Below are positions 22,301 through 46,291 of a stretch of 64,000 nt of DNA, piece after piece. Both the position numbers and the translations under genes were made by a program. Location: assembly GCA_964606485.1 (NCBI GenBank), contig CAZSGP010000001.1:481085-545084 (forward strand). Direction: 5' to 3'. Source of the stretch: an uncultured Planctomycetia bacterium (GTDB lineage: Bacteria; Omnitrophota; Gorgyraeia; 2-02-FULL-51-18). Every line of letters starts with the position of its first letter. Positions within the stretch are counted from its first letter, which is position 1. The notes below the pieces were generated by a model. It searched no databases. It had not been told where the DNA came from and saw only the letters and a program-made list of their open reading frames with translations.

Positions 22301-22535
22301 CATGCGGAGAGAAACAACATTTACTTCGTCCATCGTTAATTTTTTTAATCCCTCGGTAGCGGAATGGAACCGGACGGTTAGTGCGTTTGTGGCGGATGTT
22401 GTTGCTAATAGCCGTGATACCGCTTCGATTACCAGGTTCTTGAGGAATCCATCTCCGGATTTAGTGGGAGTTCAGGTTGTCGAAGAATTAGATAGGTGGG
22501 TAGTTTACTTGCCAGGATACACTGACCATGAATAA
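19326..22535 (+). CDS. 5'-truncated paralog (1069 aa, GTG start) of the C-terminal ~900 aa of the giant protein at 28731..41801. It spans the distal half of the C39-like domain, the glycine-zipper membrane region and the lipase-like alpha/beta-hydrolase. It may be an orphan module or a pseudogene.
   Basis: VVITSITETSITYTDMGIGRDKQNESVTVSKDGFLKAWSGNVSLE aligns to YVIITNVTENSVTYIDPSIGKDKENESLTVTKEGFLKLWQGNVTLE. The paralogs are roughly 50% identical throughout, and the in-frame homology (RNPSAQYHF vs NPSS..VHY) extends back to nt 19281. The GYSGG...GTRD...GATHFDY triad is conserved. Confidence 0.6.
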   Translation: MVITSITETSITYTDMGIGRDKQNESVTVSKDGFLKAWSGNVSLESQKIQLLPSAQNKILSAEDAKKVRGAFWGSLLAMVGSVLSWIPIPVLQQIGWGLTAISIAVSAIEGDFLTAITSAVSVFLPGLRQLFGNVFDGIGESLGSIGQTFQNAGATIYNSVTGFINSAINFLPGVGPVLQSAAAWQGASSVGALVVNTALKMGVEFSVTRGLESLGVGSQIAGFFGSLTANAITAGLKPESSIQANGQTQVMVSHAQQVQNALQQTITISQIGNLGMQLGLAPELTQLASLSVGAIQGAQILNPGGPLEYAFSEIAPNLVTTLGQYGLSELSNAIGLPPIASQMVGNIGGAALSAGLGFSHAGMDIVNVINNETIRNAVSLGMTFGMEALQIAPSASQFIFDLMDTIKVGGQSIGSRLVGAVVAGYHSAVDFLAQPFRYLPFAAQELKNGIIFSLNSFQNFLESIPTIFTPQTREAIYQNETSLSSAQIERDGDVYRFQSGSSIVEYDVVRDVLTETTLSQQLEIKGFGWNSQGEPYYQNLSYRSVLENGLVLEENFDGQALTDWSYLMEGRTLVKVNVGHEGPFYDIDDFVESGSIEMAAPITFQTTEASPTHEIESYDAPFRFVLSVSNGSITSTTAEIIREHVNDSRLDEDLYVLVNGIANENIRLEGSPQYLQNLETDLVSRSQGQIQHQDIIKASTFFNFATYQFLSGLGNYTTLGAGSVYRAVLELITGEIQNSLSLMTKDIVLWLAEVSNPARQSLLVGDIRRAVEGFFSVNPATRQRDIIGVGYSGGFVPLTEAVARVPYSANPLAGYNTKSLVAIGAALVRPDQIFNDILLKLLQAADYLQNPGQVALGVLETTLNDLDQVLLTTPGVGVGITQAVIRRVIAFVAQGSPEQAYQEYQQRLNAISGALSNLFPSAFQGFALDDLTGSSTQTIVNLYGTRDILANFAVNGHAIGGYRDDIAGFTQTNRDHQLVNIEIVGATHFDYMRRETTFTSSIVNFFNPSVAEWNRTVSAFVADVVANSRDTASITRFLRNPSPDLVGVQVVEELDRWVVYLPGYTDHE

Positions 22536-23280
22536 TATTAGAAAAATAACTCTCATTTTTGCAATAATTTCGATTGTCTGTAGTGCGTGGTTAGTACCGC
22601 ATCCAGCATTCGCTAAATCAGAAAAATATGATTTACGTTTGCTTGCCGAAAAAAATTCTCTTGAAAAGCAAGGGAGAAATTACGAATATCAGTCCGAATT
22701 TGATAGAGCAGCTCAAAAATATCAAGAAGCGGTTGAGTTGGACAATAGAATCTACGGCTCAAAAAACGGAAGAGCTCTCGCTTTTTTAGCGGAGGTTTTT
22801 CAAAAGCAAAATAGGTATGAAGATGCTCTTGAGCTAGTATTAGGTTTGGTTGTTGCGCACCCAAAACAAGAGAACTATTTGGATTGGAAGAGTGAATTAG
22901 ACGCTTTGATCAAATACAAGAATACGGGTTCTCAAGAACCTGTATCTGAATACCTAAAAGGTTATTCAAAGAAATACGAATCTAAGCTACCCCCAAATAC
23001 CTACACCTTTGGGAGCATTTTCTATGTTAATCGCATTCTGATGCTCTACGACACCATCGGCGATTACGATGCAGGAATTACATTTATCGATGAAGTTTTG
23101 GCTTATTTCAGAACCGGCAAAGCAGGAGACCCTAATCCTGGCCGTGTGGATGCGGAATACATAAAAATCAGAGAAGCCTTCGAGCTAGACAAAAAAGAAG
23201 GCAAAAAAGGTTCCATGAAGGAAGGAAAGCCCGGTCGGGCTACGCTAGCCCTCATCCAATCCGATTATTTTCCCTGGTGA
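22528..23280 (+). CDS. Membrane-anchored/secreted helical-repeat (TPR/Sel1-like?) protein. It occupies the same position as 41807..42268.
   Basis: N-terminal hydrophobic segment ITLIFAIISIVCSAWLV; Tyr/Leu/Glu-rich helical composition. Both this gene and 41807..42268 lie immediately after the hydrolase-domain end of a giant-gene copy. Confidence 0.35.
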   Translation: MNNIRKITLIFAIISIVCSAWLVPHPAFAKSEKYDLRLLAEKNSLEKQGRNYEYQSEFDRAAQKYQEAVELDNRIYGSKNGRALAFLAEVFQKQNRYEDALELVLGLVVAHPKQENYLDWKSELDALIKYKNTGSQEPVSEYLKGYSKKYESKLPPNTYTFGSIFYVNRILMLYDTIGDYDAGITFIDEVLAYFRTGKAGDPNPGRVDAEYIKIREAFELDKKEGKKGSMKEGKPGRATLALIQSDYFPW

Positions 23281-25255: not shown

Positions 25256-25519
25256 ATGAACAATAGTCATCGCGCCACGCTCGAGCTGATTTTCGAAAAT
25301 CCGGTTCGTAGCAATATTGCTTGGGCCGACATGGAAGCCTTGCTGGGTGCGCTCGGAGCTGAAATTAGTTCGCGGTCCGGTTCTCGCGTAAGAGTGGCGC
25401 TGAATGGGGTGAGGGCCGTATTTCACCGGCCTCACCCTCAGAAGGAAGCGGATAGGGGAGCTGTGAAATCGATGCGACGTTTTTTGGTGGAGGCGGGAAT
25501 AAATTATGATGAATTATAA
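25256..25519 (+). CDS. hicA: HicA-family toxin (type II TA)
   Basis: GS..VRVALNG.RAVFHRPHP.KEA...AVKSMRRFLVEAGI fits the HicA pattern (gs.H.kl...g...v.prHp..e.k....kailkqlGl). Confidence 0.6.
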   Translation: MNNSHRATLELIFENPVRSNIAWADMEALLGALGAEISSRSGSRVRVALNGVRAVFHRPHPQKEADRGAVKSMRRFLVEAGINYDEL

Positions 25520-27993: not shown

Positions 27994-28352
27994 CCTCAAG
28001 AAAAATTGTCTTAAATCTCACCAAAATAGCTCTGAGTTTGTTAATCGATATAAAAAATCCTGAAAAATAGTTTGGTAAAAATCGACCCCTCTGACGTCTA
28101 GTGTAGTGAGGGGATGATTGCTTTATTCCACCCCTACGGATAAAAAAAGCTTCTCAACCCAAAATTAGGAGGTTAAGCATATTTCAATGAAACTCGACAT
28201 CTATTCAAATAATTACTCAAAATTTCAGTATTTACATCTGAGCACTTGAAATTATGCGCGTTATCATGTACAACCTCAACACCAGAGAAACATTTTCTGG
28301 CTTGATCATTCAAACGACATTATGAAACGAAAACGAAAAAATTCTTTAATCA

Positions 28353-28382
28353 CCCGCTTGGTAACCCCAGGCGGGTTTTTTA
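28353..28382 (+). terminator. Rho-independent terminator in the RecQ/giant-gene intergenic region
   Basis: CCCGCTTGG / CCAGGCGGG stem with one G-U pair and loop TAACC, followed by TTTTTT. Confidence 0.55.
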
Positions 28383-28730: not shown

Positions 28731-31700
28731 ATGAAAACTAAATCTGTCTTTTTCAAATCTATCTGCTGGACGCTAATTCTTAGCTTCTCGTATTCGCAGT
28801 TTTGTTATGCCTTAACTCCGAGAGAGCTTTTAGATCAGGCCAAAGCTTCCTTTGGACTTATGGGAGATGATCATCATCAGGGAGGAGGATCGAACCCGGT
28901 AGATTTGCAACAAAGCCAAGTCCAAGCTCAAAGTGCCGTAGATCAGCAAAATAATCTACAAGACCTTCAAAATCTAAACTTTTCTCTAACCACTCAAAAC
29001 GGCGACACCTTAAATTACGTTAATAACACGCTTTCACAAATCACACGTCCGGACGGAACCACTTTAAATAATATTAGTCAGGACGCAATGACCGGCAATA
29101 TCACAGGTGCCAACTTAAGATTAAATGATGGAACAATTCAAATCCTCCAAAATGGAAATATTTTAGGAAGTCAAACCCCTGATGGCACCCAAGTTTTCTA
29201 TGACCTTCAGACTGGCAAAGTTCAAAGAACCGTTTCTTCAAGTGGTGAGGAAACAACGTACACATACATCAACAGCGAAACGATTCTTGAAAGTGCCCAC
29301 TTTCAAACTGCCTACGACGCCAATGATAAAATTAAGCATATTTTAGATAAACAAACGCACAAAGAGAGTTTTTTTAATAACGGCATTCTCCAAAGAATTG
29401 AAGAAGTTGATCATTCCCAGTATTTATTCGGTCATGAGACTACGGGGACAGATATCCGCGTAAGCCTGGAAGCTTTTATCGACTCCATCGGCAACCGATT
29501 TGATTTTACTGGAGACGACGTCTCCCGAGTGACGCTCGTGGATGGGACCGAGCTTCAAAATACGGTTTGGAACTCTCAAGACCAAACGCTCCGAGACTTT
29601 TCATTTACAGAAGCCTCAGGAAATACCCGCACCGTTTTAAATAATCAAACCTCACAGATCGATCTTTCGAATAATGGTGGAAGCATCACGGACATTACTT
29701 GGAATCCCCAAACACATGCTCTAGAAAATTACCACTTTACAAATCCAGCGGGTGACGACTTCACGGTCGTAAATGGATTGGCTAGCCAAATCCACTTAGC
29801 CAGTAATCAGGGTTCTATCTCTAATAGCATTCTAGATCCCAGTACAGGCCTTCTTCGGGACTATGTGTTCACCGACCCAGCAGGGAACGTGTTTACCGCT
29901 CTAAATAACCAAGCCACTCAAATTGATCTTTATAATCATCAGGGCGAGATTTCAAATATCACTTGGAACCCCACCAACCATACTCTCGAAGACTACGTCT
30001 TCACCGATCCAAACGGGAATGAATTCACAGTCGCCCAAACCCAAGTCTCTCAAATTTTTCTTCCAAGTGGCCAAGGCCGACTGACGAACATCACCTGGAA
30101 TTCTTTAGATCAAACCTTAAAAAACTACACCTTTACCGATTTTGATGGAAATGTCTTTACAGTCGTTGATAATCAAACCACACGCATCGTTCTTTCTGGG
30201 AATAGGGGAGAGCTCGCCGGTATTGAGTGGGATGCCGTCACACATTCTCTAAAAAACTACACCCACACGGATTCCGCTGGAAATATCTTCACCGTTCAAA
30301 ATAATCAAACTATCCAAATTGATCTTGCAAACAGCGCAGGACGCATTACGAATATCGTTTGGAATCCCCAAACGCTTGCACTGGAAAGCTACCACTTTAC
30401 AAATTCCTCAGGCGACGAGTTTGCGGTTAATAACGGTCAAACCACCGAGATTCTTTTAGCGAACAACGATGGACGCCTTACCAATATTATATGGGACTCA
30501 CAAACGTACGCTCTTTCAAACTACATGCTGACCGATCTAGCGGGAAATCAATTTACCGTTGCCCAAAACCAAACCACTCAAATAGCGCTTTCTAATAATG
30601 CCGGAGTGATCACAAATATTCTCTGGGATAACGCCACTCATCTGCTAAAGGATTATGTTTTCACAGACTCCACCGGAAACGTCTCTACCGTTCAAAACAA
30701 TCAAACCGTTCAAATCAATATTCCAACCCAGGGCAACTTAACCAACATTGTTTGGAGTTCAACAACTCAAAGTCTCGCAGATTTTATTTTTACAGATCTT
30801 TCTGGAAATGCATTTACAGTTCAAAATAATCAGACCACACATATAGCCCTTTCCAATTCAAGAGGCACACTCACTAATACAGGATGGGACAGTGCAACGG
30901 GCGTTCTAAAGGATTATTTATTTACAAATCCGTCCGGAGATATTTTTACAGTAATCAACGACCAGACCTCAGACGTTCTTTTGGCAAACAATGCCGGTCG
31001 CCTTACGAATATCATCTTCGACCCTCAATCCCATCTCACCAAAGACTATGTGCTCACTGATTCGGCAGGGAATATCTTTACCGTCGTCAATAACCAAGCC
31101 ACCGAAATCGATCTTGCCCATAACGCCGGACGCATTACCGGAATCATTTGGAATTCACAAAATACAATCGACCAAGCCTTGCTAACCGATTCCCAGAATA
31201 GACAGATCCAATATCAGGGTGGAGTTGCTACAAGAATTACTCTGCCAAGCGGCGAGGTTATCTCCAACATCACATGGAATTCTAACGGCACGGTGCATGA
31301 AGCAGCGCTTGCCGACTCGCAGAACAACCAATATTTCTTCCGAGACAACGTAATTATAAAAGTCCAAGACTCGAATGGTGTTTTATTTGAAAATATTCTT
31401 TGGGGCCAAGACCAAAAGATTAAAGACGCCTCTGTGACGTTTCCAGACGGCCGAACCACTCTCTATCAAGATAAGAAGCTTATCCGGTTAACCGATGCCC
31501 AGGGAGTCATCACAAACTTCACTTATACTCCCGATAGAATTCTTGCGAGTTCCAATGGAATAAACTCCGAATATTTATTAGACGGCACCCTCGTTAAAAC
31601 AACCGATGCTCAAGGCAATCAAACTTTATACTTCGCTCAAGGCCCCCAAAAAGGCCTAAAAGAAAAAGACGTGACAGTTGCAGGGGACACCTTTATCTAC

Positions 31701-34700
31701 GAATATTCTCAAAACAACACTCTCATCCAGAGAAGACAAGTTCTAAGATCTGAGCAGACTGTCACCACCATCGAAGGCCAGACCACACTTCAAGCTAAAA
31801 ATAATCCTTTCTTCGGATTTGAGGCCTCATTCCAAAACCCTGAACTCGATTCCCAAGAAGTTCGTCTGATTACAAACGGTTCTTATCCTTTGGAAATTAA
31901 GCTCAAACCCGGTCAAGACGCGGCTTTCTCCTTTAATAGAGGTGCTTTTCAATCCCTGGGAGTTCGAATCGAACAAGGCTTTGCTTACAAAGTCGAGATC
32001 CAGATTTCAAAGACGGGTATCCAAATCTTTATCTACAAATCCACTGATCCTAGGCCTTCCAATCCCGCTAGAACTATTCAGCGAAGCAATTGGAATACCC
32101 GATTTGAAATTATTTCCACTAACGCCCAAGTGCGGCTCGACGCTCGCTCCGCCGGAACTTATCGCACGGATACCACGACCCAGGACCGGCAAAACGCTTA
32201 TCGCTCTGGAAGCCCCGTTGAGCAACTGACGTTTAGACTCACCCCCCAAAACTCTTACAGCCGTCCAAGTATTCAGCTGACTGCCGAACAGCAGAACACA
32301 TCGCGTCAAAAGCGTACGTTTTATTTGGATTATCAAAATAACCAGTGGAGAATCACGGCTTTCGGTGGAGGAATCAGTTTCCAGAGCTTCGCTATCAATC
32401 AAACCCTTCAAAGTAACGTGGATTACGCGGCAGAACTCCGCTTCGAAAATAACCAGCTTAAGTTTTATGTGTATCCCAAAGGCCAACAAAGACCTCAAAG
32501 CCCACTCGCGACGCTGAATGCGCTCACAAATGCCTCAGCGCGTTTTAATTCTGACTTCAACAACGCCCAAGGGCAAGCTCAAGTGCTTTATAATCTCACG
32601 AGCCCCACTCTTTCAAGTGCCAGAGCTTCGTCGCTTCCTCAGAATATGGATCTTTTGCAAAACTCAAATCTCCTTTCACAAACGCTACCTTCGGCGCCGA
32701 TGAGTTTGTCTTATCAGAATCCCGGATTTTCTTTTGCAGAAAGCCAGCTTGCGCTCCAAAGACCTGATTTTCGGATGACTCAAGTCTCGTTCGCGTTCAC
32801 CGAGCCGAATATTCATGAGACCGAGTTTAGTCCATCCCTGGCAGGGCCGACTTTCGTATTTAATGAACCGGTATTTTCTTTTTCAAGGCCTAATCTTAAT
32901 TTAACCCAAACCAACGTCTCATCGATGGTCAATCCATCGATTTCACTGATTCAGAATGATCTAAATTTAATAACGGACCAAACCATTTCAATTGTACGGC
33001 CTCTCAAATTTGATTTGGATAATGCCATCGGTTTTAGCTCAACGACCTATAACCTTCATGGTGGGCTCGAAGAAGTTTTAAAAGCTGATAGTTCGCGGTA
33101 TGTGTTTGAAGACGGTGTTTTGTCCCAGGCATTTAACGCGCAAGGCCAAGCCACTAACTTTAGTTTTCAGGAGTCCGGCCTCTCAAATGTTGTGGGCGCT
33201 ACGATTTCTCAGAACCAAGTCCAATCTCATTACAGCGCAGAAGGGGAATTAGAGTCTGTTGTTGTAGGGGATATGACAGTTCATTACGGCTCTAATCAAT
33301 CGATTGATTATTTGGAAAAATCAGACGGCACCGAAATCCACGACATCACGTTTGACGCAAACGGACAAATCCAAAATGCCAGCGTCTATCTGCCGGATGG
33401 GAGAATCAAGTTTTATGAGAACGGGCATCTTGTTAGAAGCCAGGAAGCCGACCATTCCCAGCTTTTCTTTGTGAATGACCAAGCTGTTCAAATGATCACC
33501 GCTCAGAATCTCACGTATGATTTTAATTACACTCCCGGACACATCGAAGCAGTTCTCAATACGGCGAATATCCCAATCCCGGACGCTCTAACGCCGGTGA
33601 GAATGCAGCATGACTCAAACTTTAATCTCCAACAGATAGTTCGCCAAAACAATGAAATTATTAACTTCACCAATAACCAGGTTCAAAGCGTCCAAACTCC
33701 CAGCCAGTCCCCGCAAACGATAGTTCAGCTAGCAGACGGTTATAAAGTTTTGCAAGACAACACCGAAACTTTCTATGATTCAAACAATCAAATCCAAAAA
33801 GTGCTGATTCACACTACAGCCAGTAACTCCCACGAATTAGAAGTGAGCTATCAGTACGGCAAGATCCGTCAGATTAAAAAAGACAATACCCTCACTTTCA
33901 CGTACTCCTATGAATTTACTTCAGAGAATAAGGAGCGGACGGTTATTCACGACCTTGAAGAAAACTCCACAAAGACCTATGAAAACGAGCTCCTTCTGAC
34001 TAGTTTTGATAACGACACGTCCGTACTCTCGAATTATTCTTATGATGCCAACAAGAAAGTTTCTCGGGTTGTGGTTTCGCGTCTGGGGCGAACGCTTCAC
34101 ACCTACAACTATACTTATTCAAATGATCAAACCCTCGTTACCGATGAAGAGGGAATTCTGAGAACCTACGACTCCAACAACAAGCTCATTTTCCTTGATA
34201 AAGAAAATAAGCGCTTTACCTACACCTATCACACCGATGCTACGACTCACGAAGAAATCATCGAAGAAAAACTGATTCGTCAAACTTTAGAGGGCGGAGC
34301 GGTCGTTGATTACGATGTGGACGGACAAATCCAAAAAATCCAAAACACTGACGGAACGTTTATTGACCACGTGGTTTTAGGTGGCCAGCGAAACATCCAA
34401 AAAGCCACGATTCATCTTTTAGATGGAACGAGTAAAGTCTTTAGCGGAACCCAAATTCTTGAAGAAATCACCCCGCAAAACACTCACTTTTATTTTGACG
34501 AGGGCAGAATTACAAGGGTGGTAGGCTCCCAAGGGGATGAATTTGATTATATTTATGACCAGGACTCCGGCGGAAACGTTGTGCGAGTCAGATCAGATAT
34601 TGGACAAGCTTACTTAGAGTACGACATTAACGGAGATCTTCAAGGATTTCGTCCGAAAGATAGTAATCAGTTTTACCATCTCACAAAAACGTTCGATGCG

Positions 34701-37700
34701 AGCGGCAGGCCGACCTATTTTTTAAATGCGTATGGAGCGAGTTTTCAGTTTCAAGAAAGTGGTCTACAATTATCTATCAATCAGTTTAGTTTTCTTCAGA
34801 GTCAGCCAGATAACCGCACTACAATTTTTACCTTACCCCAAATTGACCATGCCGTGCCATTTTTTGGAACCGGAGTTGATGGAGATGCCAGAGTTACAGC
34901 AGCTACCTATCTAACTAGAGATATGAATTATAACTCTCTGACTATTGATTCAGGCGCAATTTTATATCCAAATGGACATAAAATTTTTGTGAATGGCGAT
35001 TTAATTAATAATGGGTCAATTTCCGTGGATGGGCAAGGTGGGCAGGGCGGCGGTGGTGGAGCGCCTCGACCCACTGGTTCGCCGTCAGGCGGTCAAAGCG
35101 GCCAATCTCAAACGGACTCATTTGGAGGGATTGGTGGAAATGGGGGAGCTGGCGGAGATACGCGATACACTTCGCCGCGTGGCGCAAGCTCATTTTATCC
35201 GGGATACCCTGGTGGTTCCGGCGGCGCGATCAGCGGATTTGCCAGCACCACTTTACCCACAGATATTTTGGCGGGAAATCCTGTAAATATATCGGCAGGT
35301 GCTGGCGGCGGTGGCGGAGGCTCATCGGCCATGGTTTACGGAGGAAGTGGGGGTCCCGGGGGAGGTGCTCTGTTTATTTTCGCTAAAAATATAAAAAATG
35401 AAAATGGGACAATTTCAGCCAATGGGCAAAATGGGGTGGATGGTGGTTGGGGACCTGGTATTGGAGACGGAGGTTCTGGCGGTGGCGGCGGTGGCGGCGG
35501 GGGGACAATTTATCTTGTGTATCAAGCCATTGAAAATGGAAATATTCAAACTAATCCGGGCTTAGGTGGTTCTGGTGGCGGCGGTTCTAGTCAAGGTGGA
35601 GCTGGAGCCAGCGGTCTTCCAGGTTCGGTGGTGAAATTTAGCCCTTTAAATTTAAATATTTCATTTGATAGCTCAGAACTTCGATTGCCATATTTTGACA
35701 AAATGAATTTTGACAAGGGTTTTAGTGACGCAACTAATCAGATTTACACCGGAACATATGCCTTTGGCCAAATTTCTCAGATTCAGGGTATTTATAATTC
35801 CCAGGGCGTAAATATTGATGTTCAAAAAAATCTCATTCATCAAATCACCGAATCTTCTGGCCAAAGAAAAGACTACAGCTATCAAAGAGACATAAACGGC
35901 GCTCTCACCGGAATCACCGTCACTCAAAATAATACCCAGATGCATTATTCGCCAGATGGCGTGTTGAATGGGGTTCGGTTTTTGTCGATGCCTAACACCA
36001 TTGATCAGGCTAAAGATTTTGTAGATGCAAGCTCTGGAAATTTTACAATCGCTTCAACCGGAAATGTTGCCTTAGATGTCGACCAGCAAGGTTTCTTTGG
36101 AAATGCCTCAGCGCTCTTCGATGGAGCTTCGAGCTATCTTTCCGTAAATCCAAATCCCGCTTTTAATTTTGGAACGGGCGACTTTACGATGGAGACGCGT
36201 TTGTTTTTACAAAGTCTCCCCGCCAATAATTCCGAAGCAGTTATTTTTGATAATGGGGGAGTCCAAGGTGTAAGACTGGGAATCTCGAACACGAATGGGC
36301 TCTATCAAATCCATTTAGTCATTGCCAATACAAACTACAGTCTCAATTTTGTGCCACAGGCAAACTCCTGGCAGCATTTGGCGCTTGTCCGCAATAGCGG
36401 AGTGATTAAAATTTTTGTGGATGGCTACCAGGTGGGTTCAGATATTCAAAATGCTTCCAACATCTCAAATCTCTCTCAAGGTTTGCGCATCGGAAATTCT
36501 TTTTCCGGCAACCAATTCTTTAAAGGAAGTCTTGATGAATTAAGAATTTCAAAAGGAGTGGTGCGCTACGCTCAAAACTTTACAAGTAATACGGAGAGCC
36601 ACCGCTCAGATTCTTTTACCAGTCTCTTACTTCATTTTGACGGAACGGATTACTCAAACTTTTCAATTCGTAAAGATGGGGCTAATTTTATTTTCGAAGG
36701 AGCTAGCGGACAAACATTTTTGATTCCCGCCTCCGTGGGAATGACAGATTCTGTGACAATCAATCCTTCCTTCATCACACAAAGCCGTGACGCGGTCCAA
36801 AGAGTAAATTTTTCAATCAATCCTTTAGAACAAAACCCGTCTCAACGATTCGGAGACGGGCACGACGGAAGCGCGACGCTTTTATCCAACACCACGCTCA
36901 CTCGTGACATGTACTACGACAACCTCACCATAAATCCGGGAGCCACTTTAAATCCCAACGGGTATAAAATATTTGTAAAAGGAATGCTGACGAATAACGG
37001 CACGATCTCCGTTCAAGGCGGAAATGGTTCTAACGGCCAAGGTGCTTATAAACCTGGTGACGGAGACACAAATCCAGGAAGCGGTGGCGGAGCAGGTCAG
37101 CCCGTAACAACCCAAATAAAATCACTCGGCAGTTCTGTTGCTGGCGGTTCGGGGGGATCGGGTGGTCATGGAGGCGGCGGCGGAGCGGGACAAAACGGAC
37201 AGTCTGTAGCCCAATCTCTCGGAGGTCCCGGCGGCGGAAATGGCGGCTCTGTCCAAAATTATTCGATACAGGCTTTAAATCCTGACGTATTTTCTAACCA
37301 AACAATATTGACCCTTCAAGGCGGAGCTTCCGGTCAAGGCGGCGCAGGGGGCGGCGGCCAAAATTACACAGGATCCGGCGGCGGTGGAGGCGGTGGAGCG
37401 GCAGGCGGCGGAGTAATCGCAATCTACGCTCAACAAATTTTAAATCAAAATGGAATCATCACTGCAAACGGTGGAAACGGCGGAACAGGCGGCGGTGGTC
37501 AAGGTGAAGAATATTATAATGGCCGAGGCGATGGTGGTTCGGGCGGTTCCGGCGGCGGCGGTGGAACGATATTCCTAGTTTACGATCAAATCCAAGATGG
37601 AACAATTACGTCGAGCGGCGGTCAGGGTGGAAATGGTGTGGGTGGCTCTCGTGGTGCCACTGGAGCAAATGGTCAACCGGGCCAGACCGGAACTATTCTT

Positions 37701-40700
37701 CGTTATGATACTGCATCACTTAATCCAATCACGTTAGCTTTAGAGCTTCCGTTTAAAGCAATCAACACAGCACTCTCTCGAGCAAACGAAACGCTTCAAG
37801 GTTGGATGAGTTCTGTGACGCAAGCAAACTTAAGTTCACAGGACGTGGTGTCTCAAGAGTATTCTGCGAGCGGTATTCTTGAAGATCAGGTTCACGCGGA
37901 TGGAACCGTTACGATTTTCGAGAATAATAAGCCGTCCATGGTTCTTGATAAGGAAGGTCTTGTTCTTATCCAGTACACCTACGACAGCGAAGGTCATCCT
38001 ACAAGAGTTTATTTAAAGAACGCTCGTAATGCGTTGCCGGATGAAATCGCCAAAGCGCGTCAAAAAATCGAAGACCAACGCGCCAATGATTTAAGAAATC
38101 TCGCCATTCAAAAAAATCTCTCTTACCAGTCCATTCAGACCCAAGCCGCCGCCCAGCGCGCGCAACTCGAATCTCAACTCTCTCAAGTAGAAGATCAGTT
38201 GAGTCATATTTCAGGCATCGAAGTAAAAGGTAAAGCCCAGAGAGTTCAAAAAGCCAATGCCCTAGAGCAATTGGGAGATGCCGTTAGTCAAATCAACCAA
38301 GCGCTCACCGATCTCTCACTCCAAGAGGGAAGTGCCTACGCCAATCTCGACTCCCAAGTTTTATTTTTGTCTAACAAAATTGAAGCCGACACGCAAACGG
38401 CTATCACGAATCTTCGAATTCAAGAAGATCAACTCAAAATCGAAATTCTAAGACAAGAAGTCTCGCCAATTGTTTACGACAACTACCGTAGAATCCTAGG
38501 CCGCGACCCCTCGTCGAGTGAATACAACTTCTGGATTGGTCAAATTGACTATGCGACGGGTGAGTCGCTCCAAGAAGTAAAAACCCTTCAAGGAATTAAT
38601 CTCACCACCGCTCTCAACGCTCATCTTTTAGCCTTGCCGGAGCTTGCCCAAAGACAAGCGTACGTAAATTCCATTAAACAGTCGGTCACGAGTGAGATTG
38701 ATCAGTACCTTAATCTATCAGCCGAAGATAAACTTTTATTTTTACAATCGCTGGGTCTTTCAGCGTCGGATGCAATCAATCTTACAAATTCTGACGCTCA
38801 AAAAGTTTTGTCATGGCTTAATACCCGAAGCCTTCACTTTGGACAGAGCGCTTTTTTAAGTCTCGAAGCGCTACTCGATCAGAACCACATCGCCTTCCAG
38901 CGTGAAGACATAGCCCGTAAAGCCATTCTGATTGATGTTCTTTGCGGGATTATTTCGCCTCTCGATGACGGAGATCTCGTCATCTCGCTTTTTGCGCTCA
39001 ATAAAGTGGCGGGTCTTTATGGCCTCAGCCTCTCCGGAGCTAATTTAAACTGGAACGATCTCCAGTCGATCTATAATTCCAATCCCTCCTCCAAAATTAT
39101 TGCTCATATTAATTCCGTTCACTACGTCATCATCACAAACGTCACAGAAAATTCCGTGACTTACATCGACCCCTCCATCGGCAAAGATAAAGAAAACGAA
39201 TCTCTTACCGTTACAAAGGAGGGATTCTTAAAGCTCTGGCAGGGGAATGTAACGCTTGAAACACAAACTCTAAATACTCTTCCAAACGCTCAAAGCAAAG
39301 TTTTATCTGCCGAAGCAACGCAAGGTATAAGAGGCGCATTCTGGGGAAGTCTTCTAAACCTTATTGGATTCGTAGTGTGGATTATAAATCCCGAGTTAGG
39401 GTTCCTCCTTAACATGATCCGTCTCGCCGCTCTCGGCGCTTCCATCGCTGAAGGAGATTGGCTCTCGGGCCTTTCATCCATCGTCTCTCTAAACTTCGGA
39501 GATCTCGGGAACGCTTTTGGCACTATATTTAAGGGAGCCTCCACCGGAGTCACCCAAACGATCAGCTCTTTGGGTCAAGCCTTAAACGGAGTCGGGCAGT
39601 TCTTTGGAACCATCTTTCAATCTGTCACCGGCTTCTTTGGAAATATCTCCCAAGGACTCAACAGCTTCCTTCAAGGCTCACTTGGAATCTCCTCAGGCAT
39701 CGGGCAAAGAATTGTCGAGACCGCCGTTGGGGTCGGAATTAACTACGGAGTCTCGAAAGGGCTAACGGCTATCGGAGTGGATGAGCAGGTTTCAGGATTC
39801 TTAGGGTCGCTTACGGCGGGAGCGATTATCGGTGGAATGAAAGATGAGACTATAGCTGGCGGACATGTGGCCGTAACCCATGCGCAAAATATTCAAGCTT
39901 CAGTCCAGCAAGTTCTAACGATCAGTAATGTTGGACAACTGGGCGCAGAACTTCACCTAGATCCAACGCTAACGAGCATCGTCGGCTTATCTCTTGGCGC
40001 GATTCAAGGGCACATCATCACTAATCCCGGAAGTAATCTGGAGTACGCTTTCTCAGAGATAAGGCCGAATCTATATTCGAGTTTAGCGCAGTACGGAGTC
40101 TCAGAACTCGCTCAAAGTTTTGGAGTGGACTCCAATCTTGCGCCCATATTCACACTGCCGGTTGCAAGCGGCCTCAATGCGTTAACAACTGGCCAAGACG
40201 TGATCCAAGCTGTAAACCAAGGTCTCAATCAAGGTATTGTTCGTTACGGCTTAAACTTTGCTGGAAACTCTAACCCAATTTTTGGATCGCTTCTTTCGCC
40301 GGACATTCAAAACTCGATAGAACAATCCGTTGGTCAGCAAGGATTGTTCCAGGGAATATTTAGTATTGTCGGTCGAACCACTCGAGGTCTTCTCCAAGGA
40401 GTGTCCGCAATTGGTCAATCTATCCAAAGTTTTGGATCTCTCGTTCAACAAAGAGGTCTTGCCGGAGCTTTGTCTCAAACAATGAGTTCATTTTTTGGAA
40501 GATCCTCAATCGAACAGATCGTAAATCAGGGTGGAATTGCTCAAAGTCTTCAGAACGCTCCAAGACAACAAGTCACGCTTAATAACGGTCAAACCGCTAC
40601 AGAAGTAGAGCTGTCTCAAGACGCCTCAATCTACTTGGACTCTCAAGGAGATTTGCTGGGAACGAGAGACCAGGATCTTGTGCAAATAGGGGATTTTGGT

Positions 40701-41801
40701 TATGACACTAATGCCGACATCTTTCTATCCGATGGAATGGTTTATTCTGATCTACCAGATCAATATCAGCTCTCCATGCAAGTTGATGGTTACCAGCCCA
40801 TTCATATTGAAGTATCAGATAATCAAAACCAACCCGTTCTTCAAGTAACACCAAAAGATGGTCAGCAGAATATTCAGATTCAATCCCCCACTCAAACATC
40901 ACCCAGCTTTTTAAACTCAATCCTATCTTTGGTGCCAATGGGACTTTCGTTCTTGATGAGTGAGGGGGTGGCTGAGGCGGCGGGCATCTCTGTAAATACA
41001 GCATCTGCAAATCCTATCGGACAACTTATAGATGTTGTTCTTTTGAATGGTGTTCGTCTTACAGAATTCGCTAGAGAAGGAGAGGCTCCGCGCTATTTTC
41101 AATCGGGAAATGCCTTCAGAAACGAACTCAATCGTCTCCACGTTAGCGATAATTCAATAAAAACAATTTCTCTTTTTGAGCAGTTCGGTACGGATTTATA
41201 CCAATGGTTACAGAATCAGAAGCTTGCGCAAGAAGTTACGAATGAATTGGTCCAAATTCGCAATACGCAACTCAACCACCCATTTGTCCCGCTAGCGTAC
41301 AGTGGTGGTGGGCGGCCACTTCTCAATGCTCTTGCAAATGAAACTCATAATGGATTTGGTGTGCAGACGGCGATTTTAGTGGGTTCTCCAATGACCGAAG
41401 CCGAGACCCTGATAGAGTCACCAACCCTAAGTACAATTGTCAATATTTATGGGAGCAATGACCTGTTTCTTGTGGCTACGCCTCAAGATGGAGTACCATC
41501 AATCTCCAAGCATTTTTCCAGCGATGACCATTACGTCCAAACAATCAATATCGAGCTTCAGGGTATTGGGCATACGGATTATTTTTACAGTAGCAATGAA
41601 ACGCCTTCCGCGCTTAAAATGAAGGCCTGTAATTTTATAGCAAGACTTACTCAAGCTGCTCTTGACGAGCAGACACTGGGGGATTTTTTGAATCTATTAG
41701 GTGCGCCTTATTCAGCGGAAACCTTTGACGATGAGCACTATTTAAGCGAGGTCAAAAACTACGTGATTAATTTAAATAACTTGCCTGATCTAAATTTGTA
41801 A
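28731..41801 (+). CDS. Giant secreted multidomain protein (4,356 aa). Parts in order: signal peptide, conserved N-domain, ~15 tandem 44-aa repeats, YD/Rhs-like repeats, two Gly-rich modules, LamG-like domain, coiled coil, DUF4214-like segment, C39-like peptidase domain, glycine-zipper TM region, C-terminal lipase-like alpha/beta-hydrolase.
   Basis: A single uninterrupted ORF. Signal peptide MKTKSVFFKSICWTLILSFSYSQFCYA. LamG pattern FDGASSYLSV...LRIGNSF...FKGSLDELRIS at nt ~36060-36570. C39-like pattern HYVIITNV..YIDPS....LTVTKEGFLKLWQGNV at nt ~38810-39260. Hydrolase triad AYSGGG / GSNDLF / GIGHTDYF at nt ~41290-41585. Confidence 0.8.
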   Translation: MKTKSVFFKSICWTLILSFSYSQFCYALTPRELLDQAKASFGLMGDDHHQGGGSNPVDLQQSQVQAQSAVDQQNNLQDLQNLNFSLTTQNGDTLNYVNNTLSQITRPDGTTLNNISQDAMTGNITGANLRLNDGTIQILQNGNILGSQTPDGTQVFYDLQTGKVQRTVSSSGEETTYTYINSETILESAHFQTAYDANDKIKHILDKQTHKESFFNNGILQRIEEVDHSQYLFGHETTGTDIRVSLEAFIDSIGNRFDFTGDDVSRVTLVDGTELQNTVWNSQDQTLRDFSFTEASGNTRTVLNNQTSQIDLSNNGGSITDITWNPQTHALENYHFTNPAGDDFTVVNGLASQIHLASNQGSISNSILDPSTGLLRDYVFTDPAGNVFTALNNQATQIDLYNHQGEISNITWNPTNHTLEDYVFTDPNGNEFTVAQTQVSQIFLPSGQGRLTNITWNSLDQTLKNYTFTDFDGNVFTVVDNQTTRIVLSGNRGELAGIEWDAVTHSLKNYTHTDSAGNIFTVQNNQTIQIDLANSAGRITNIVWNPQTLALESYHFTNSSGDEFAVNNGQTTEILLANNDGRLTNIIWDSQTYALSNYMLTDLAGNQFTVAQNQTTQIALSNNAGVITNILWDNATHLLKDYVFTDSTGNVSTVQNNQTVQINIPTQGNLTNIVWSSTTQSLADFIFTDLSGNAFTVQNNQTTHIALSNSRGTLTNTGWDSATGVLKDYLFTNPSGDIFTVINDQTSDVLLANNAGRLTNIIFDPQSHLTKDYVLTDSAGNIFTVVNNQATEIDLAHNAGRITGIIWNSQNTIDQALLTDSQNRQIQYQGGVATRITLPSGEVISNITWNSNGTVHEAALADSQNNQYFFRDNVIIKVQDSNGVLFENILWGQDQKIKDASVTFPDGRTTLYQDKKLIRLTDAQGVITNFTYTPDRILASSNGINSEYLLDGTLVKTTDAQGNQTLYFAQGPQKGLKEKDVTVAGDTFIYEYSQNNTLIQRRQVLRSEQTVTTIEGQTTLQAKNNPFFGFEASFQNPELDSQEVRLITNGSYPLEIKLKPGQDAAFSFNRGAFQSLGVRIEQGFAYKVEIQISKTGIQIFIYKSTDPRPSNPARTIQRSNWNTRFEIISTNAQVRLDARSAGTYRTDTTTQDRQNAYRSGSPVEQLTFRLTPQNSYSRPSIQLTAEQQNTSRQKRTFYLDYQNNQWRITAFGGGISFQSFAINQTLQSNVDYAAELRFENNQLKFYVYPKGQQRPQSPLATLNALTNASARFNSDFNNAQGQAQVLYNLTSPTLSSARASSLPQNMDLLQNSNLLSQTLPSAPMSLSYQNPGFSFAESQLALQRPDFRMTQVSFAFTEPNIHETEFSPSLAGPTFVFNEPVFSFSRPNLNLTQTNVSSMVNPSISLIQNDLNLITDQTISIVRPLKFDLDNAIGFSSTTYNLHGGLEEVLKADSSRYVFEDGVLSQAFNAQGQATNFSFQESGLSNVVGATISQNQVQSHYSAEGELESVVVGDMTVHYGSNQSIDYLEKSDGTEIHDITFDANGQIQNASVYLPDGRIKFYENGHLVRSQEADHSQLFFVNDQAVQMITAQNLTYDFNYTPGHIEAVLNTANIPIPDALTPVRMQHDSNFNLQQIVRQNNEIINFTNNQVQSVQTPSQSPQTIVQLADGYKVLQDNTETFYDSNNQIQKVLIHTTASNSHELEVSYQYGKIRQIKKDNTLTFTYSYEFTSENKERTVIHDLEENSTKTYENELLLTSFDNDTSVLSNYSYDANKKVSRVVVSRLGRTLHTYNYTYSNDQTLVTDEEGILRTYDSNNKLIFLDKENKRFTYTYHTDATTHEEIIEEKLIRQTLEGGAVVDYDVDGQIQKIQNTDGTFIDHVVLGGQRNIQKATIHLLDGTSKVFSGTQILEEITPQNTHFYFDEGRITRVVGSQGDEFDYIYDQDSGGNVVRVRSDIGQAYLEYDINGDLQGFRPKDSNQFYHLTKTFDASGRPTYFLNAYGASFQFQESGLQLSINQFSFLQSQPDNRTTIFTLPQIDHAVPFFGTGVDGDARVTAATYLTRDMNYNSLTIDSGAILYPNGHKIFVNGDLINNGSISVDGQGGQGGGGGAPRPTGSPSGGQSGQSQTDSFGGIGGNGGAGGDTRYTSPRGASSFYPGYPGGSGGAISGFASTTLPTDILAGNPVNISAGAGGGGGGSSAMVYGGSGGPGGGALFIFAKNIKNENGTISANGQNGVDGGWGPGIGDGGSGGGGGGGGGTIYLVYQAIENGNIQTNPGLGGSGGGGSSQGGAGASGLPGSVVKFSPLNLNISFDSSELRLPYFDKMNFDKGFSDATNQIYTGTYAFGQISQIQGIYNSQGVNIDVQKNLIHQITESSGQRKDYSYQRDINGALTGITVTQNNTQMHYSPDGVLNGVRFLSMPNTIDQAKDFVDASSGNFTIASTGNVALDVDQQGFFGNASALFDGASSYLSVNPNPAFNFGTGDFTMETRLFLQSLPANNSEAVIFDNGGVQGVRLGISNTNGLYQIHLVIANTNYSLNFVPQANSWQHLALVRNSGVIKIFVDGYQVGSDIQNASNISNLSQGLRIGNSFSGNQFFKGSLDELRISKGVVRYAQNFTSNTESHRSDSFTSLLLHFDGTDYSNFSIRKDGANFIFEGASGQTFLIPASVGMTDSVTINPSFITQSRDAVQRVNFSINPLEQNPSQRFGDGHDGSATLLSNTTLTRDMYYDNLTINPGATLNPNGYKIFVKGMLTNNGTISVQGGNGSNGQGAYKPGDGDTNPGSGGGAGQPVTTQIKSLGSSVAGGSGGSGGHGGGGGAGQNGQSVAQSLGGPGGGNGGSVQNYSIQALNPDVFSNQTILTLQGGASGQGGAGGGGQNYTGSGGGGGGGAAGGGVIAIYAQQILNQNGIITANGGNGGTGGGGQGEEYYNGRGDGGSGGSGGGGGTIFLVYDQIQDGTITSSGGQGGNGVGGSRGATGANGQPGQTGTILRYDTASLNPITLALELPFKAINTALSRANETLQGWMSSVTQANLSSQDVVSQEYSASGILEDQVHADGTVTIFENNKPSMVLDKEGLVLIQYTYDSEGHPTRVYLKNARNALPDEIAKARQKIEDQRANDLRNLAIQKNLSYQSIQTQAAAQRAQLESQLSQVEDQLSHISGIEVKGKAQRVQKANALEQLGDAVSQINQALTDLSLQEGSAYANLDSQVLFLSNKIEADTQTAITNLRIQEDQLKIEILRQEVSPIVYDNYRRILGRDPSSSEYNFWIGQIDYATGESLQEVKTLQGINLTTALNAHLLALPELAQRQAYVNSIKQSVTSEIDQYLNLSAEDKLLFLQSLGLSASDAINLTNSDAQKVLSWLNTRSLHFGQSAFLSLEALLDQNHIAFQREDIARKAILIDVLCGIISPLDDGDLVISLFALNKVAGLYGLSLSGANLNWNDLQSIYNSNPSSKIIAHINSVHYVIITNVTENSVTYIDPSIGKDKENESLTVTKEGFLKLWQGNVTLETQTLNTLPNAQSKVLSAEATQGIRGAFWGSLLNLIGFVVWIINPELGFLLNMIRLAALGASIAEGDWLSGLSSIVSLNFGDLGNAFGTIFKGASTGVTQTISSLGQALNGVGQFFGTIFQSVTGFFGNISQGLNSFLQGSLGISSGIGQRIVETAVGVGINYGVSKGLTAIGVDEQVSGFLGSLTAGAIIGGMKDETIAGGHVAVTHAQNIQASVQQVLTISNVGQLGAELHLDPTLTSIVGLSLGAIQGHIITNPGSNLEYAFSEIRPNLYSSLAQYGVSELAQSFGVDSNLAPIFTLPVASGLNALTTGQDVIQAVNQGLNQGIVRYGLNFAGNSNPIFGSLLSPDIQNSIEQSVGQQGLFQGIFSIVGRTTRGLLQGVSAIGQSIQSFGSLVQQRGLAGALSQTMSSFFGRSSIEQIVNQGGIAQSLQNAPRQQVTLNNGQTATEVELSQDASIYLDSQGDLLGTRDQDLVQIGDFGYDTNADIFLSDGMVYSDLPDQYQLSMQVDGYQPIHIEVSDNQNQPVLQVTPKDGQQNIQIQSPTQTSPSFLNSILSLVPMGLSFLMSEGVAEAAGISVNTASANPIGQLIDVVLLNGVRLTEFAREGEAPRYFQSGNAFRNELNRLHVSDNSIKTISLFEQFGTDLYQWLQNQKLAQEVTNELVQIRNTQLNHPFVPLAYSGGGRPLLNALANETHNGFGVQTAILVGSPMTEAETLIESPTLSTIVNIYGSNDLFLVATPQDGVPSISKHFSSDDHYVQTINIELQGIGHTDYFYSSNETPSALKMKACNFIARLTQAALDEQTLGDFLNLLGAPYSAETFDDEHYLSEVKNYVINLNNLPDLNL
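29521..31530 (+). repeat. In-frame tandem array of ~15 units with a 132-nt (44-aa) period
   Basis: Consensus unit (Y/F)(V/T)FTDxxGNxFTVxNNQTTQIxLxNxxGxITNIxWNxxTxxLxDY repeated from aa ~265 to ~935 of the giant protein. The units have diverged at the nucleotide level. Confidence 0.7.
34912..35640 (+). repeat. Gly-rich low-complexity module 1, preceded by a conserved TRDMNYNSLTIDSGAILYPNGHKIFVNGDLINNGSISV leader
   Basis: Long poly-Gly/Ser/Gln stretches, including a (GGC/GGT)n run near nt 35474-35506. Module 2 begins with a near-identical leader. Confidence 0.6.
36898..37715 (+). repeat. Gly-rich low-complexity module 2, an internal duplicate of module 1 (leader TRDMYYDNLTINPGATLNPNGYKIFVKGMLTNNGTISV)
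   Basis: The leader motif and the following TIFLVYDQIQDGTI segment match TIYLVYQAIENGNI in module 1. A (GGC/GGT)n run lies near nt 37376-37413. Confidence 0.6.
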
Positions 41802-41806
41802 TCGCC

Positions 41807-42268
41807 ATGAAAAAATTATTAGTAATATTTATCATAACGTTGGTAGCAATCGGTGTCAGTTGGAAGATTTTCTCTCGTTTGAACAAGAATGCGGCGAAAA
41901 AGCCAGTGGAAACAGTTTTTATTGCGCCCAAAGAATATACGGAATCGTTTGAAAAGTCTACCGCATCGGCCAGGTTATTCTATGAAAAGTACCGGCGAGC
42001 GCTAGACCAGCTTAAACATGAAAACTACCAAGAAGCAATTCAGTCTTTTAATGAGTGTGTTCCTGAGGCGGGCATCGGCATTGAAAAAGGAATGGTTTAT
42101 AACAGGCTTGTGCAAATTTACAAAGCGCTTGATGACCCTCAAAACGAGTTGAAGTACACAGAACTTACGATTAAATTTTCAGCCAATACTGTTCTAAACG
42201 AGGAACTTAGTCGCCGTGCCGCTGAACTCCGCCAACTTCTCTCTGCAAAAGAAGCGCAGAAGAAATAA
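41807..42268 (+). CDS. Membrane-anchored helical (TPR-like?) protein (153 aa), positional counterpart of 22528..23280
   Basis: N-terminal TM segment LLVIFIITLVAIGVSW; helical Glu/Lys/Tyr-rich sequence. It starts 6 nt after the giant gene's stop codon. Confidence 0.35.
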   Translation: MKKLLVIFIITLVAIGVSWKIFSRLNKNAAKKPVETVFIAPKEYTESFEKSTASARLFYEKYRRALDQLKHENYQEAIQSFNECVPEAGIGIEKGMVYNRLVQIYKALDDPQNELKYTELTIKFSANTVLNEELSRRAAELRQLLSAKEAQKK

Positions 42269-43555: not shown

Positions 43556-43620
43556 ATTAGTCACGCTCTTTGGAAATATAATAGACTTGTTAATTTTTAG
43601 TAAAGAAACATAATTAGGCA

Positions 43621-43649
43621 TTGACAAACAGAAAGAGGTTTAATATACT
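43621..43649 (+). promoter_or_regulatory. Sigma-70-like promoter (TTGACA -17- TATACT)
   Basis: -35 TTGACA at 43621-43626, an exactly 17-nt spacer, and -10 TATACT at 43644-43649. It lies upstream of the HTH gene at 43700. Confidence 0.5.
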
Positions 43650-43699
43650 GAAAAAGCTCTAAAGCACGTGAACTTGATCTCATTGCTAAGAGAGGGTTT

Positions 43700-43912
43700 T
43701 TGGAAAAAAGTAAAGATAGCGTCTTTACCGTCCAAGAACTGGCGAAATACCTTCGCATGAAGCCGCTTACGATTTATAAGCACGCCTCCGAAGGAAATTT
43801 GCCGGGTTTTAAAATTGGGTCGCACTGGCGCTTCAAAAAACAAACGATTGATCGATGGATAAGCGATCAAGAAACGTGTAGCAGTAAGAAAAAAACTTTA
43901 ATAAATGTGTAG
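43700..43912 (+). CDS. Excisionase/AlpA-family HTH DNA-binding protein, paralog of 25006..25200
   Basis: FTVQELAKYLRMKPLTIYKHASEGNLPGFKIGSHWRFKKQTI. The gene has its own promoter and its own terminator. Confidence 0.6.
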   Translation: MEKSKDSVFTVQELAKYLRMKPLTIYKHASEGNLPGFKIGSHWRFKKQTIDRWISDQETCSSKKKTLINV

Positions 43913-43941
43913 CCCAAGCTTTAGAGCTTGGGTTTTTTGTT
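43913..43941 (+). terminator. Rho-independent terminator
   Basis: CCCAAGCT / AGCTTGGG perfect 8-bp stem with loop TTAG, followed by TTTTTTGTTT. Confidence 0.7.
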
Positions 43942-43959
43942 TACGAGATAGGCTGAGGT

Positions 43960-46289: not shown

Positions 46290-46291
46290 AC

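Follow-up and report, generated by a model that had tools for sequence, protein, structure and literature searches.

A 4,356-residue exported protein of an Omnitrophota-type bacterium as a probable polymorphic toxin with exchangeable tips and tip-matched partner genes

Omnitrophota are abundant, uncultivated bacteria of very small size that are suspected to live on other cells, and to our knowledge their huge surface proteins have so far been without a testable function. We analysed a 64,000-nucleotide stretch of DNA, referred to below as the window, from an uncultured bacterium assigned to this phylum (assembly GCA_964606485.1, contig CAZSGP010000001.1, positions 481,085 to 545,084 of the forward strand). 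The subject of the analysis is a single open reading frame (ORF) of 13.07 kb within it. From sequence comparisons, we conclude that this gene probably encodes a Sec-exported, fibre-like polymorphic toxin of an Omnitrophota-type bacterium and that the next, small gene probably encodes the cognate immunity protein. The scaffold of the protein carries an exchangeable C-terminal domain (the tip), spare cassettes of tip and partner lie nearby, and each tip type travels with its own downstream gene. Set beside the published polymorphic-toxin template, for which alpha/beta-hydrolase toxin families have been described (PMC3482391), the family combines a secretion signal and repeats, unrelated tips, a tip-specific downstream gene and orphan cassettes. 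An earlier reading of this DNA (the original prediction) had proposed a polymorphic-toxin-like architecture. Its core is upheld by the variation of the tip on its scaffold, the co-variation of tip and partner, the orphans and the hydrolase fold, while its 'autoproteolytic' label is unproven and its Rhs/teneurin and glycine-zipper labels are not upheld. The elements that carry the argument are the following.

28731..41801, + strand: toxin gene, one open frame of 4,356 sense codons plus stop
40953..41798, + strand: C-terminal alpha/beta-hydrolase effector domain, aa ~4075-4356, with an A-Y-S4191-G-G elbow, Asp4244 and His4281
41807..42268, + strand: partner gene, 153 aa, N-terminal membrane anchor, helical and TPR-like, candidate immunity protein
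19326..22535, + strand: orphan cassette, an N-terminally truncated paralogue recognized by core and C-terminal hidden Markov model (HMM) matches
22528..23280, + strand: partner of the orphan, 250 aa, with a signal peptide ending AFA before K and TPR repeats, overlapping the orphan's end by 8 nt

Homologues of the last 1,156 residues of the protein were found nearly exclusively in Omnitrophota metagenome-assembled genomes (MAGs). Scanning one genome per species for the motif LHFGQSA of the C39-like domain yielded 71 loci, essentially all labelled Omnitrophota or uncultured Planctomycetia/bacterium. In these loci the C39-like domain always lies 940-1,430 aa before the stop codon, with an open frame of 1,200 to >3,300 aa on its N-terminal side. 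Many full-length relatives have the N-domain, the RHS-like region and the stalk in common and the signal-peptide motif is general, while 44-aa repeats, LamG and Gly-rich modules are present in some relatives and missing from others. The sequences delineate a large unnamed family, known almost only from Omnitrophota, in which the head and a C-terminal block are conserved and the shaft varies. The original statement that the domain order matches no named family holds for Pfam and NCBIfam, yet the protein is one of many members of this unnamed Omnitrophota family.

The tips, by comparison, are exchanged. Complete C-terminal parts were available for 47 loci. A hydrolase HMM recognizes 31 of them (E 1e-8 to 1e-121); the remaining 16 give no match to it and comprise 13 unrelated tip types. 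The scaffolds nearest to that of the window protein (P0001, P0002 and P0003, with 51%, 47% and 46% identity) bear tips unrelated to its own, and the hydrolase is also borne by scaffolds more distant than these three. Homology to the window protein stops around aa 3996-4040 (aa ~3996-4010 for the other-tipped relatives), a stretch that coincides with the end of a small beta domain or falls inside it, and identity drops after aa 4010. Most alternative tips have no Pfam match; that of L049 matches Peptidase_C92 (an NlpC/P60-like amidase) above the cut-off, and that of L019 matches the PT-TG pre-toxin family just under it (E 1e-4).

The C-terminus of the window protein had been described as a Ser/Asp/His alpha/beta-hydrolase module with a lipase-type AYSGG elbow, and this description was borne out. 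An AlphaFold model of the tip built from nine relatives (pLDDT 69, pTM 0.73) gave Bacillus subtilis lipase A as the top Foldseek match, with cutinases, PETases and thioesterases ranking next. All 31 hydrolase tips have both Ser4191 and His4281, and Asp4244 is conserved in most. Based on the model fold, the Foldseek matches and the invariant Ser and His, the tip is assigned as a minimal, lid-less serine hydrolase with Ser4191, Asp4244 and His4281 as its predicted catalytic residues. A profile match to the named lipase or toxin hydrolase families, including Lipase_2/3 and DUF2235/Tle1, was not obtained in Pfam at E<=10 or in NCBIfam. The variable tip opens with a moderately hydrophobic, probably amphipathic segment (aa 4059-4081, 40905-40973, SFLNSILSLVPMGLSFLMSEGVA) that recurs in the same-tip relatives P0004 and P0015 and is modelled with low confidence; this segment may help the hydrolase to associate with membranes.

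The partner gene begins 5 nt after the toxin stop codon and matches the partner family with an E value of 5e-22. A member of this family lies directly downstream of the hydrolase in 29 of 29 evaluable hydrolase loci and in none of the 16 others (Fisher p = 1.5e-12), with gaps of -37 to +16 nt and often with overlaps of 4 or 8 nt. All hydrolase partners are exported or anchored, as judged from a signal peptide, lipobox or anchor, and contain helical TPR-like repeats. Their lengths follow the hydrolase subtype: 153-177 aa with YSG[GS], 164-179 aa with HSGFF, 245-292 aa with [YF]SGGF and about 280-306 aa with HSG[ND]FQP. Because the genomes of the loci are related, we compared distances. Tip and partner distances are correlated (rho 0.68, Mantel p <= 5e-4), against a rho of 0.15 for scaffold and partner and 0.12 for scaffold and tip; the partial correlation of tip and partner given the scaffold is 0.77. 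Downstream of three other tip types lie genes whose products, 118-157 aa long, have neither hydrophobic N-termini nor export signals. A search of the other tips' partners for known immunity families returned only DUF6966 and a weak HEAT_2 match.

Spare cassettes form the third line of evidence. The window orphan begins within the C39-like domain, at a position equivalent to aa 3466, and is 43% identical to aa 3466-3843 of the main protein. Its hydrolase is of a different subtype (GYSGGF) and is 35% identical to the tip of P0013. The orphan's partner has TPR Pfam matches, matches the partner HMM with an E value of 9e-81 and is 39% identical to the product of L005 14415-15215. Comparable arrangements were found elsewhere: in L019 an other-tipped main gene is followed by a scaffold fragment with a hydrolase and its partner, L023 has a second tip and partner, and L055 has a lone extra partner gene. 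We considered whether the window orphan might be the remnant of a disrupted full-length gene and rejected this reading, as no upstream ORF of the window resembles the N-terminal parts of the protein and there is no residual C39-like coding sequence upstream of 19326.

Each of the three stand-alone, N-terminally truncated cassettes is immediately preceded by tyrosine recombinase genes in the same orientation (regions window 17012-19326, L003 6363-10001 and L006 2-690), three such genes standing in tandem in L003, and all three cassettes are truncated within C39-like coding sequence, at positions equivalent to aa 3373-3466 of the window protein. The recombinases are only 30-36% identical between loci, and we do not claim that those beside the window orphan and the L003 orphan are the same element. 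In L005 10401-17569, downstream of P0013, three IS200-type (Y1_Tnp) transposase genes alternate with tip fragments and partners, which suggests that insertion sequence (IS) elements may take part in building or breaking cassette arrays.

The 13-kb ORF itself, claimed earlier to be uninterrupted and to encode 4,356 residues, was confirmed, and a check for frameshifts and collapsed-repeat misassembly revealed neither. Tandem Repeats Finder (TRF) detected a single DNA tandem array in the gene, a 23-nt GGC run. At the DNA level, the 132-nt units coding for the 44-aa repeats show just 60-79% identity among themselves, a divergence that makes repeat collapse unlikely. An identical 4,356-aa protein is on record from a public NCBI contig of 546,306 bp, and relatives of similar length are collinear from end to end (4,357 aa in L055, 4,334 aa in L060, 4,439 aa in L068 and 4,311 aa in another). 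The DNA comes from a metagenome-type source and the public-assembly relatives P0003, P0004 and P0013 are split by frameshifts, as might be expected if the long ORF were an assembly artefact or a decaying pseudogene. Given the open frame, the diverged repeats, the identical protein on a 546-kb contig, the collinear relatives and the conserved catalytic residues, we consider this explanation extremely improbable.

The scaffold consists of a signal peptide and N-domain; a variable shaft with beta-rich, LamG and Gly-rich parts; RHS-like repeats; and a C-terminal block made of a stalk, a DUF4214-like motif, a C39-like domain, a hairpin, a helical region and a beta domain. In the window protein these parts are located as follows.

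28731..28811, + strand: Sec-type signal peptide, aa 1-27, MKTKSVFFKSICWTLILSFSYSQFCYA followed by L, read from the sequence
28812..29540, + strand: conserved N-terminal domain (N-domain), aa 28-270, defined by similarity to the N-termini of relatives
29541..31520, + strand: about 15 tandem 44-aa beta-rich repeats, aa 271-930, with W anchors every 44 aa
31521..33230, + strand: beta-rich middle region, aa 931-1500, conserved in close relatives
33228..34820, + strand: divergent YD/RHS-like repeat region, aa 1500-2030, from the RHS_repeat profile
34848..35750, + strand: Gly-rich module 1, aa ~2040-2340, paralogous to module 2
36120..36560, + strand: LamG / concanavalin-A-like jelly roll, aa 2464-2610, from Pfam Laminin_G_3
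36828..37820, + strand: Gly-rich module 2, aa ~2700-3030, duplicate of module 1
38058..38480, + strand: helical coiled-coil-like stalk, aa ~3110-3250, with few Pro/Gly and heptad periodicity
38481..38555, + strand: DUF4214-like motif YRRILGRDPSSSEYNFWIGQID, aa 3251-3275, from the DUF4214 profile
38808..39260, + strand: C39-like papain-fold domain lacking the catalytic Cys, aa 3360-3510, from Pfam PF03412
39333..39455, + strand: hydrophobic hairpin, aa 3535-3575, a predicted membrane segment after an R-G-A-F motif
39456..40562, + strand: Gly/Ser/Ala-rich 'pre-toxin' region, aa 3576-3944, predicted to be all-helical, conserved
40563..40850, + strand: small beta domain, aa 3945-4040, AF2 pLDDT 77-90, overlapping the end of the conserved scaffold

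Most of the N-terminal features that had been read from the sequence alone stood up to comparison with relatives. The signal peptide conforms to a family motif, ..K[ST]V..[ILV]L..[TS]FS[FYW]S[QN][IL].[YFW]A, which is kept in full-length relatives (L008, L009, L013, L017, L026, L032, L038, L040, L055, L060, L068 and L074) even where the N-domain escapes BLAST detection and which may mark a dedicated export or sorting route. The conserved N-domain has no Pfam match. Of 15 relatives compared, most have an N-terminus that shares 33-46% identity with it, whereas L025, L054 and L078 match it at internal positions (24-34%); P0006 matches it as well. The repeats, about 15 in number as claimed and in a clear W register, are a variable 'shaft' module that P0006 and L010 lack. 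The middle region that follows has no Pfam match and contains a weak internal duplication (aa 1072-1133 versus 1216-1280, E 4e-5).

The two Gly-rich modules are indeed duplicates: their heads are 48% identical over 88 aa (E 1e-16) and share the conserved pattern ..TLTRDM.Y..LTI..GA.L.PNG.KIFV.G.L.NNG.IS..G. Glycine content peaks at 37% in module 2 (aa 2801-3000). No Pfam family corresponds to the module, and its head has no homologues in a word-indexed protein search. Between the two modules, the predicted jelly roll was identified by Laminin_G_3 well above the cut-off (E 2.3e-17, 64 bits versus 27.6) over nearly the whole profile (positions 1-144 of 151), and it is likely a carbohydrate- or ligand-binding module. 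A search of Protein Data Bank (PDB) sequences with the whole protein gave a Gly-linker as its sole match, which we judged spurious.

The block that precedes the tip is conserved in the family. The predicted coiled coil of about 150 residues corresponds to a Pro/Gly-poor segment whose hydrophobic periodicity of 3.5 residues reaches 7.6 times background at aa 3141-3196, with a heptad signal spanning aa 3141-3224; it is present in nearly all relatives. The DUF4214-like assignment is supported for the family, 8 of 18 relatives being matched at E<=1 with a best E of 1.2e-5, and weakly so for the window protein itself, where the match (profile positions 26-49 of 72) is below the cut-off (18 bits versus 23.2, E 0.003-0.017). 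Within its ILGRDP motif, L-G-R-D is invariant. Behind the C39-like domain comes the one strongly hydrophobic hairpin of the region, with Kyte-Doolittle peaks of 1.4-1.7 and more hydrophobic counterparts at the same place in relatives; the R and G of the R-G-A-F motif before it are invariant. The original description of the hydrophobic region as rich in glycine zippers is not borne out, since the count of GxxxG motifs is no higher than composition gives (13 versus 9.5 +/- 2.6 in composition-matched shuffles).

The C39-like domain is only partly what had been predicted. Peptidase_C39 (PF03412) matches aa 3419-3509 above the cut-off (31.2 bits versus 22), over profile positions 46-127 of 133 only. 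With a profile built from nine relatives, the C39 domain of PCAT1 is matched as well (E 2.6e-8), but again in part, along the half that bears the catalytic His and Asp. His3464 is invariant and aligned with the catalytic-His motif of PCAT1, and Asp3480 lies inside a DPxxG-like motif. The profile assignment, the His and the Asp stand; the catalytic Cys does not, as the nine aligned relatives have no conserved Cys in this domain. Cys3405, the only Cys of the domain in the window protein, is replaced by S, T or A in relatives. Instead, the invariant LHFGQSA motif, which includes Ser3373, occupies the place expected for the Cys helix in every relative, possibly providing a Ser3373-His-Asp variant in place of the Cys triad. 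The N-terminal half of the domain has no match to any PDB structure. The term 'autoproteolytic domain' is unproven because the catalytic Cys is lacking in every relative. There is no fusion to an ABC transporter: the NCBIfam match covers only positions 41-114 of a 673-position ABC model, and the C-terminal domain is a hydrolase.

Taken together, these features suggest how such a toxin might act. Sec would export the N-terminus, and the beta-rich shaft of ~3,300 aa with its LamG domain would extend from the cell and bind the target surface. The hairpin and the Gly/Ser/Ala-rich helical region could then insert into a membrane and help the tip to cross it, and the hydrolase would attack ester bonds of the target envelope, most likely those of membrane lipids. 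The membrane-anchored partner, its TPR-like part presumably facing the periplasm, would bind the hydrolase and protect the producer. New tips may arise by recombination in the C39-like/pre-toxin coding region, where all three stand-alone cassettes are cut. A bolder version of this scheme, in which the block before every tip is a self-contained apparatus for toxin release and membrane crossing that is new to science, Sec export through the family-specific signal peptide makes the system independent of types 1 to 9 secretion and of contact-dependent inhibition (CDI), and new tips are acquired by C39-region recombination, perhaps aided by the tandem tyrosine recombinases upstream of the stand-alone cassettes, is doubtful at present.

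Several observations weigh against a polymorphic toxin. The window contains no gene for a secretion system or an outer-membrane transporter. The tip, searched as aa 3960-4356, matches no Pfam family at E<=10 and no NCBIfam hydrolase or toxin family. One tip family accounts for two thirds of the relatives, so that tips are less diverse than in classical CdiA/Rhs systems. The candidate releasing peptidase lacks its catalytic Cys. A sharp junction motif of the VENN kind is absent, and identity decays gradually after aa ~3800. The orphan cassette of the window shares the strand of the main gene and is located upstream of it, an arrangement from which simple recombination would not build a new full-length toxin. 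Finally, the loci stem from related genomes, so that counts such as 29 of 29 are not independent events, and the Mantel test corrects for this only partly.

Omnitrophota are thought to be predatory or parasitic nanobacteria, and self-protection proteins are known for predatory enzymes. The same architecture might hence be aimed at prey or a host rather than at competitors of the same kind, as a fibre for attachment and attack whose hydrolase opens the prey envelope and whose partner serves self-protection. This is the most serious alternative, if clearly the less probable one. It would fit the near-confinement of the relatives to Omnitrophota MAGs, the LamG modules, suited to binding glycan surfaces, and the envelope-type nature of both tips with an identifiable fold or family (the alpha/beta-hydrolase and the NlpC/P60-like amidase); the literature likewise ties large Omnitrophota proteins to attachment and to degradation of prey cell walls. 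However, orphan cassettes, lone partners and subtype-specific partners typify an arms race in which the opponents are related and use a common weapon, and several alternative tips have cytoplasmic-type partners, which would imply delivery into a bacterial-type cytoplasm.

Two further explanations concern the partner and the class of the toxin. In Pseudomonas and Burkholderia, lipase foldases are membrane-anchored, helical and encoded downstream of the lipase. A partner that is anchored, helical, translationally coupled to a lipase-like domain and co-varying with it would equally suit a steric chaperone, and the protein might be a resident surface adhesin or enzyme anchored by its hairpin; large surface proteins of the ZU5 type with lipase domains do exist (PMC3482391). 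We regard this as unlikely. Neither window partner (41807-42265 and 22528-23277) gives a Lipase_chap Pfam match, the latter matching only TPR. Lone partner genes without a hydrolase, at L055 and L005 14415, are expected of immunity genes rather than foldases; unrelated tips, each with its own small downstream gene, some without export signals, follow the logic of toxin and immunity; and one relative has a PT-TG pre-toxin match. It is the lone partner genes and the subtype-matched pairs that argue for immunity over a foldase role. Still less probable, and in our view close to dismissed, is a canonical Rhs/teneurin-type toxin, in which a YD shell would surround the C-terminal toxin and an Rhs aspartyl autoprotease release it. 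In its favour, the YD/Rhs-like repeats proposed earlier are supported at the level of the family, RHS_repeat being found in 15 of 16 orthologous segments (best E 8e-8), and weakly so in the window protein itself (12 bits versus a cut-off of 22, E 0.28-0.33). However, the region lies ~2,000 residues from the tip, from which Gly-rich modules, LamG, the stalk, the C39-like domain and a helical region of ~400 aa separate it, Pfam and NCBIfam give no match to an Rhs core, an RHS-associated family or an aspartyl-protease motif, and the window has no PAAR, VgrG or Tc genes. The resemblance to Rhs/teneurin-type toxins drawn in the original prediction thus does not amount to membership of that class.

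The surroundings of the toxin gene were also annotated. A hairpin between recQ and the toxin gene suggests that the latter starts its own transcription unit.

28352..28376, + strand: terminator-like hairpin 3' of recQ, 10-bp stem (7 GC pairs) followed by a T tail

The GTG start of recQ (25816) is overlapped by the end of a HicB-family antitoxin gene (25506-25829), with no HicA among the ORFs scanned. At the beginning of the window, an operon resembling DISARM-type anti-phage systems (22-7619) encodes a protein with an MmeI target-recognition domain (22-1068), a 1,299-aa helicase (1068-4967), an MZB/DUF1998 protein (4964-6844) and a PLD-like nuclease (6807-7619). It is followed on the + strand by genes for a PD-(D/E)XK nuclease, a trypsin-like peptidase, a PriCT_1 primase-like protein, a PIF1 helicase and recombinases (7653-19277), a probable integrated mobile element or defence island that stops exactly at the orphan cassette. 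Its tyrosine recombinase genes comprise two full ones (17012-18067 and 18381-19277) and, between them, a 106-aa recombinase fragment. On the other side, past the toxin gene and its partner, a biosynthetic cluster of lipid or polyene type (42311-52131) encodes a PMT_2-like glycosyltransferase, a FabG-type reductase, two ketoacyl synthases, two amine-oxidase/desaturase-like flavoproteins and an acyltransferase-methyltransferase fusion. Beyond it, at 52148-56606, are genes for a 7TM histidine kinase, two receiver proteins and an HD-GYP-like protein. A 100-kb JGI contig (L001/L002 9828-15581) carries two family paralogues about 4 kb apart (P0003 and a 4,032-aa protein with LamG and C39), and the space between them holds similar regulators, namely genes for a 7TM histidine kinase and a receiver.

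If the proposed function is correct, polymorphic toxin warfare extends to a phylum in which our literature search found no description of it, with a delivery scaffold and a family of envelope-targeting hydrolases and inhibitors that are both new, and some large Omnitrophota surface proteins may act on neighbouring cells in this way. That search covered full texts in an incomplete library together with passages of Omnitrophota papers, and within these no exchangeable tips, immunity genes or orphan cassettes of Omnitrophota proteins were described. The family offers a handle in the form of a catalytic tip, a candidate antidote and genetic rules, and its function is testable without culturing the organism.

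We compared the window protein with four groups of known systems. Like the C39 peptidases of PCAT1 and ComA, it has a papain-like fold region with the triad His and Asp directly before membrane segments and, like the inactive C39-like domain of HlyB, it lacks the catalytic Cys. Unlike PCAT, however, its domain is not part of an ABC transporter, has no nucleotide-binding domain, is placed by the predicted topology on the exported side of the membrane, and has its N-terminal half replaced by the invariant LHFGQSA motif, for which no match among solved structures was found. The type VI secretion system (T6SS) pairs Tle/Tli and the Tox-ABhydrolase-1/2/3 families share with it a Ser-Asp-His envelope hydrolase and an adjacent partner of exported or lipoprotein type. 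In contrast to Tle, the window tip has no sequence match to DUF2235 or any lipase Pfam family, is closest in fold to the minimal LipA/cutinase type, and is fused to a Sec-exported fibre of 4,000 aa in a window without T6SS genes.

The giant genes of Omnitrophota (Archaeovorins and Dockerin-type in West-Roberts et al. 2023; the PF03412 cluster in Nielsen & Lui 2026) come from the same phylum and, in the passages retrieved from these papers, resemble the window protein in having a signal peptide and transmembrane (TM) topology, C39-like domains, LamG and beta-helical repeats and in their proposed action on the envelopes of other cells. The likeness to giant proteins of uncultivated lineages noted earlier does not extend to size: as defined in the retrieved part of West-Roberts et al. 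2023, such genes have ORFs of at least 20 kb and encode at least 7,000 aa, and proteins of at least 7,000 to 147,000 aa stand against the 4,356 aa of the window protein. The latter also lacks the glycosyltransferase, methylase, SecA-like and dockerin content given for them in those passages, which, for their part, mention neither an exchangeable tip with a cognate partner nor orphan cassettes.

The closest parallel is with the polymorphic toxins CdiA, Rhs and MafB (PMC3482391), which share with the window family a secretion signal, long repeats, a conserved pre-toxin region, an exchangeable toxin, a tip-specific downstream gene and orphan cassettes that retain a conserved piece; alpha/beta-hydrolase and NlpC/P60-type tips are known toxin classes among them. 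The window protein differs in having no TPS, PAAR, LXG or other named trafficking domain, and its family in a pre-toxin block that is not a named module, in orphans that keep ~600 aa of scaffold rather than a short stub, in the dominance of one tip family (31 of 47) and in its restriction to Omnitrophota-type genomes. As far as sequence can tell, the locus thus appears to encode a toxin-immunity system whose underlying logic is already well known, built on a phylum-specific scaffold that had not been described.

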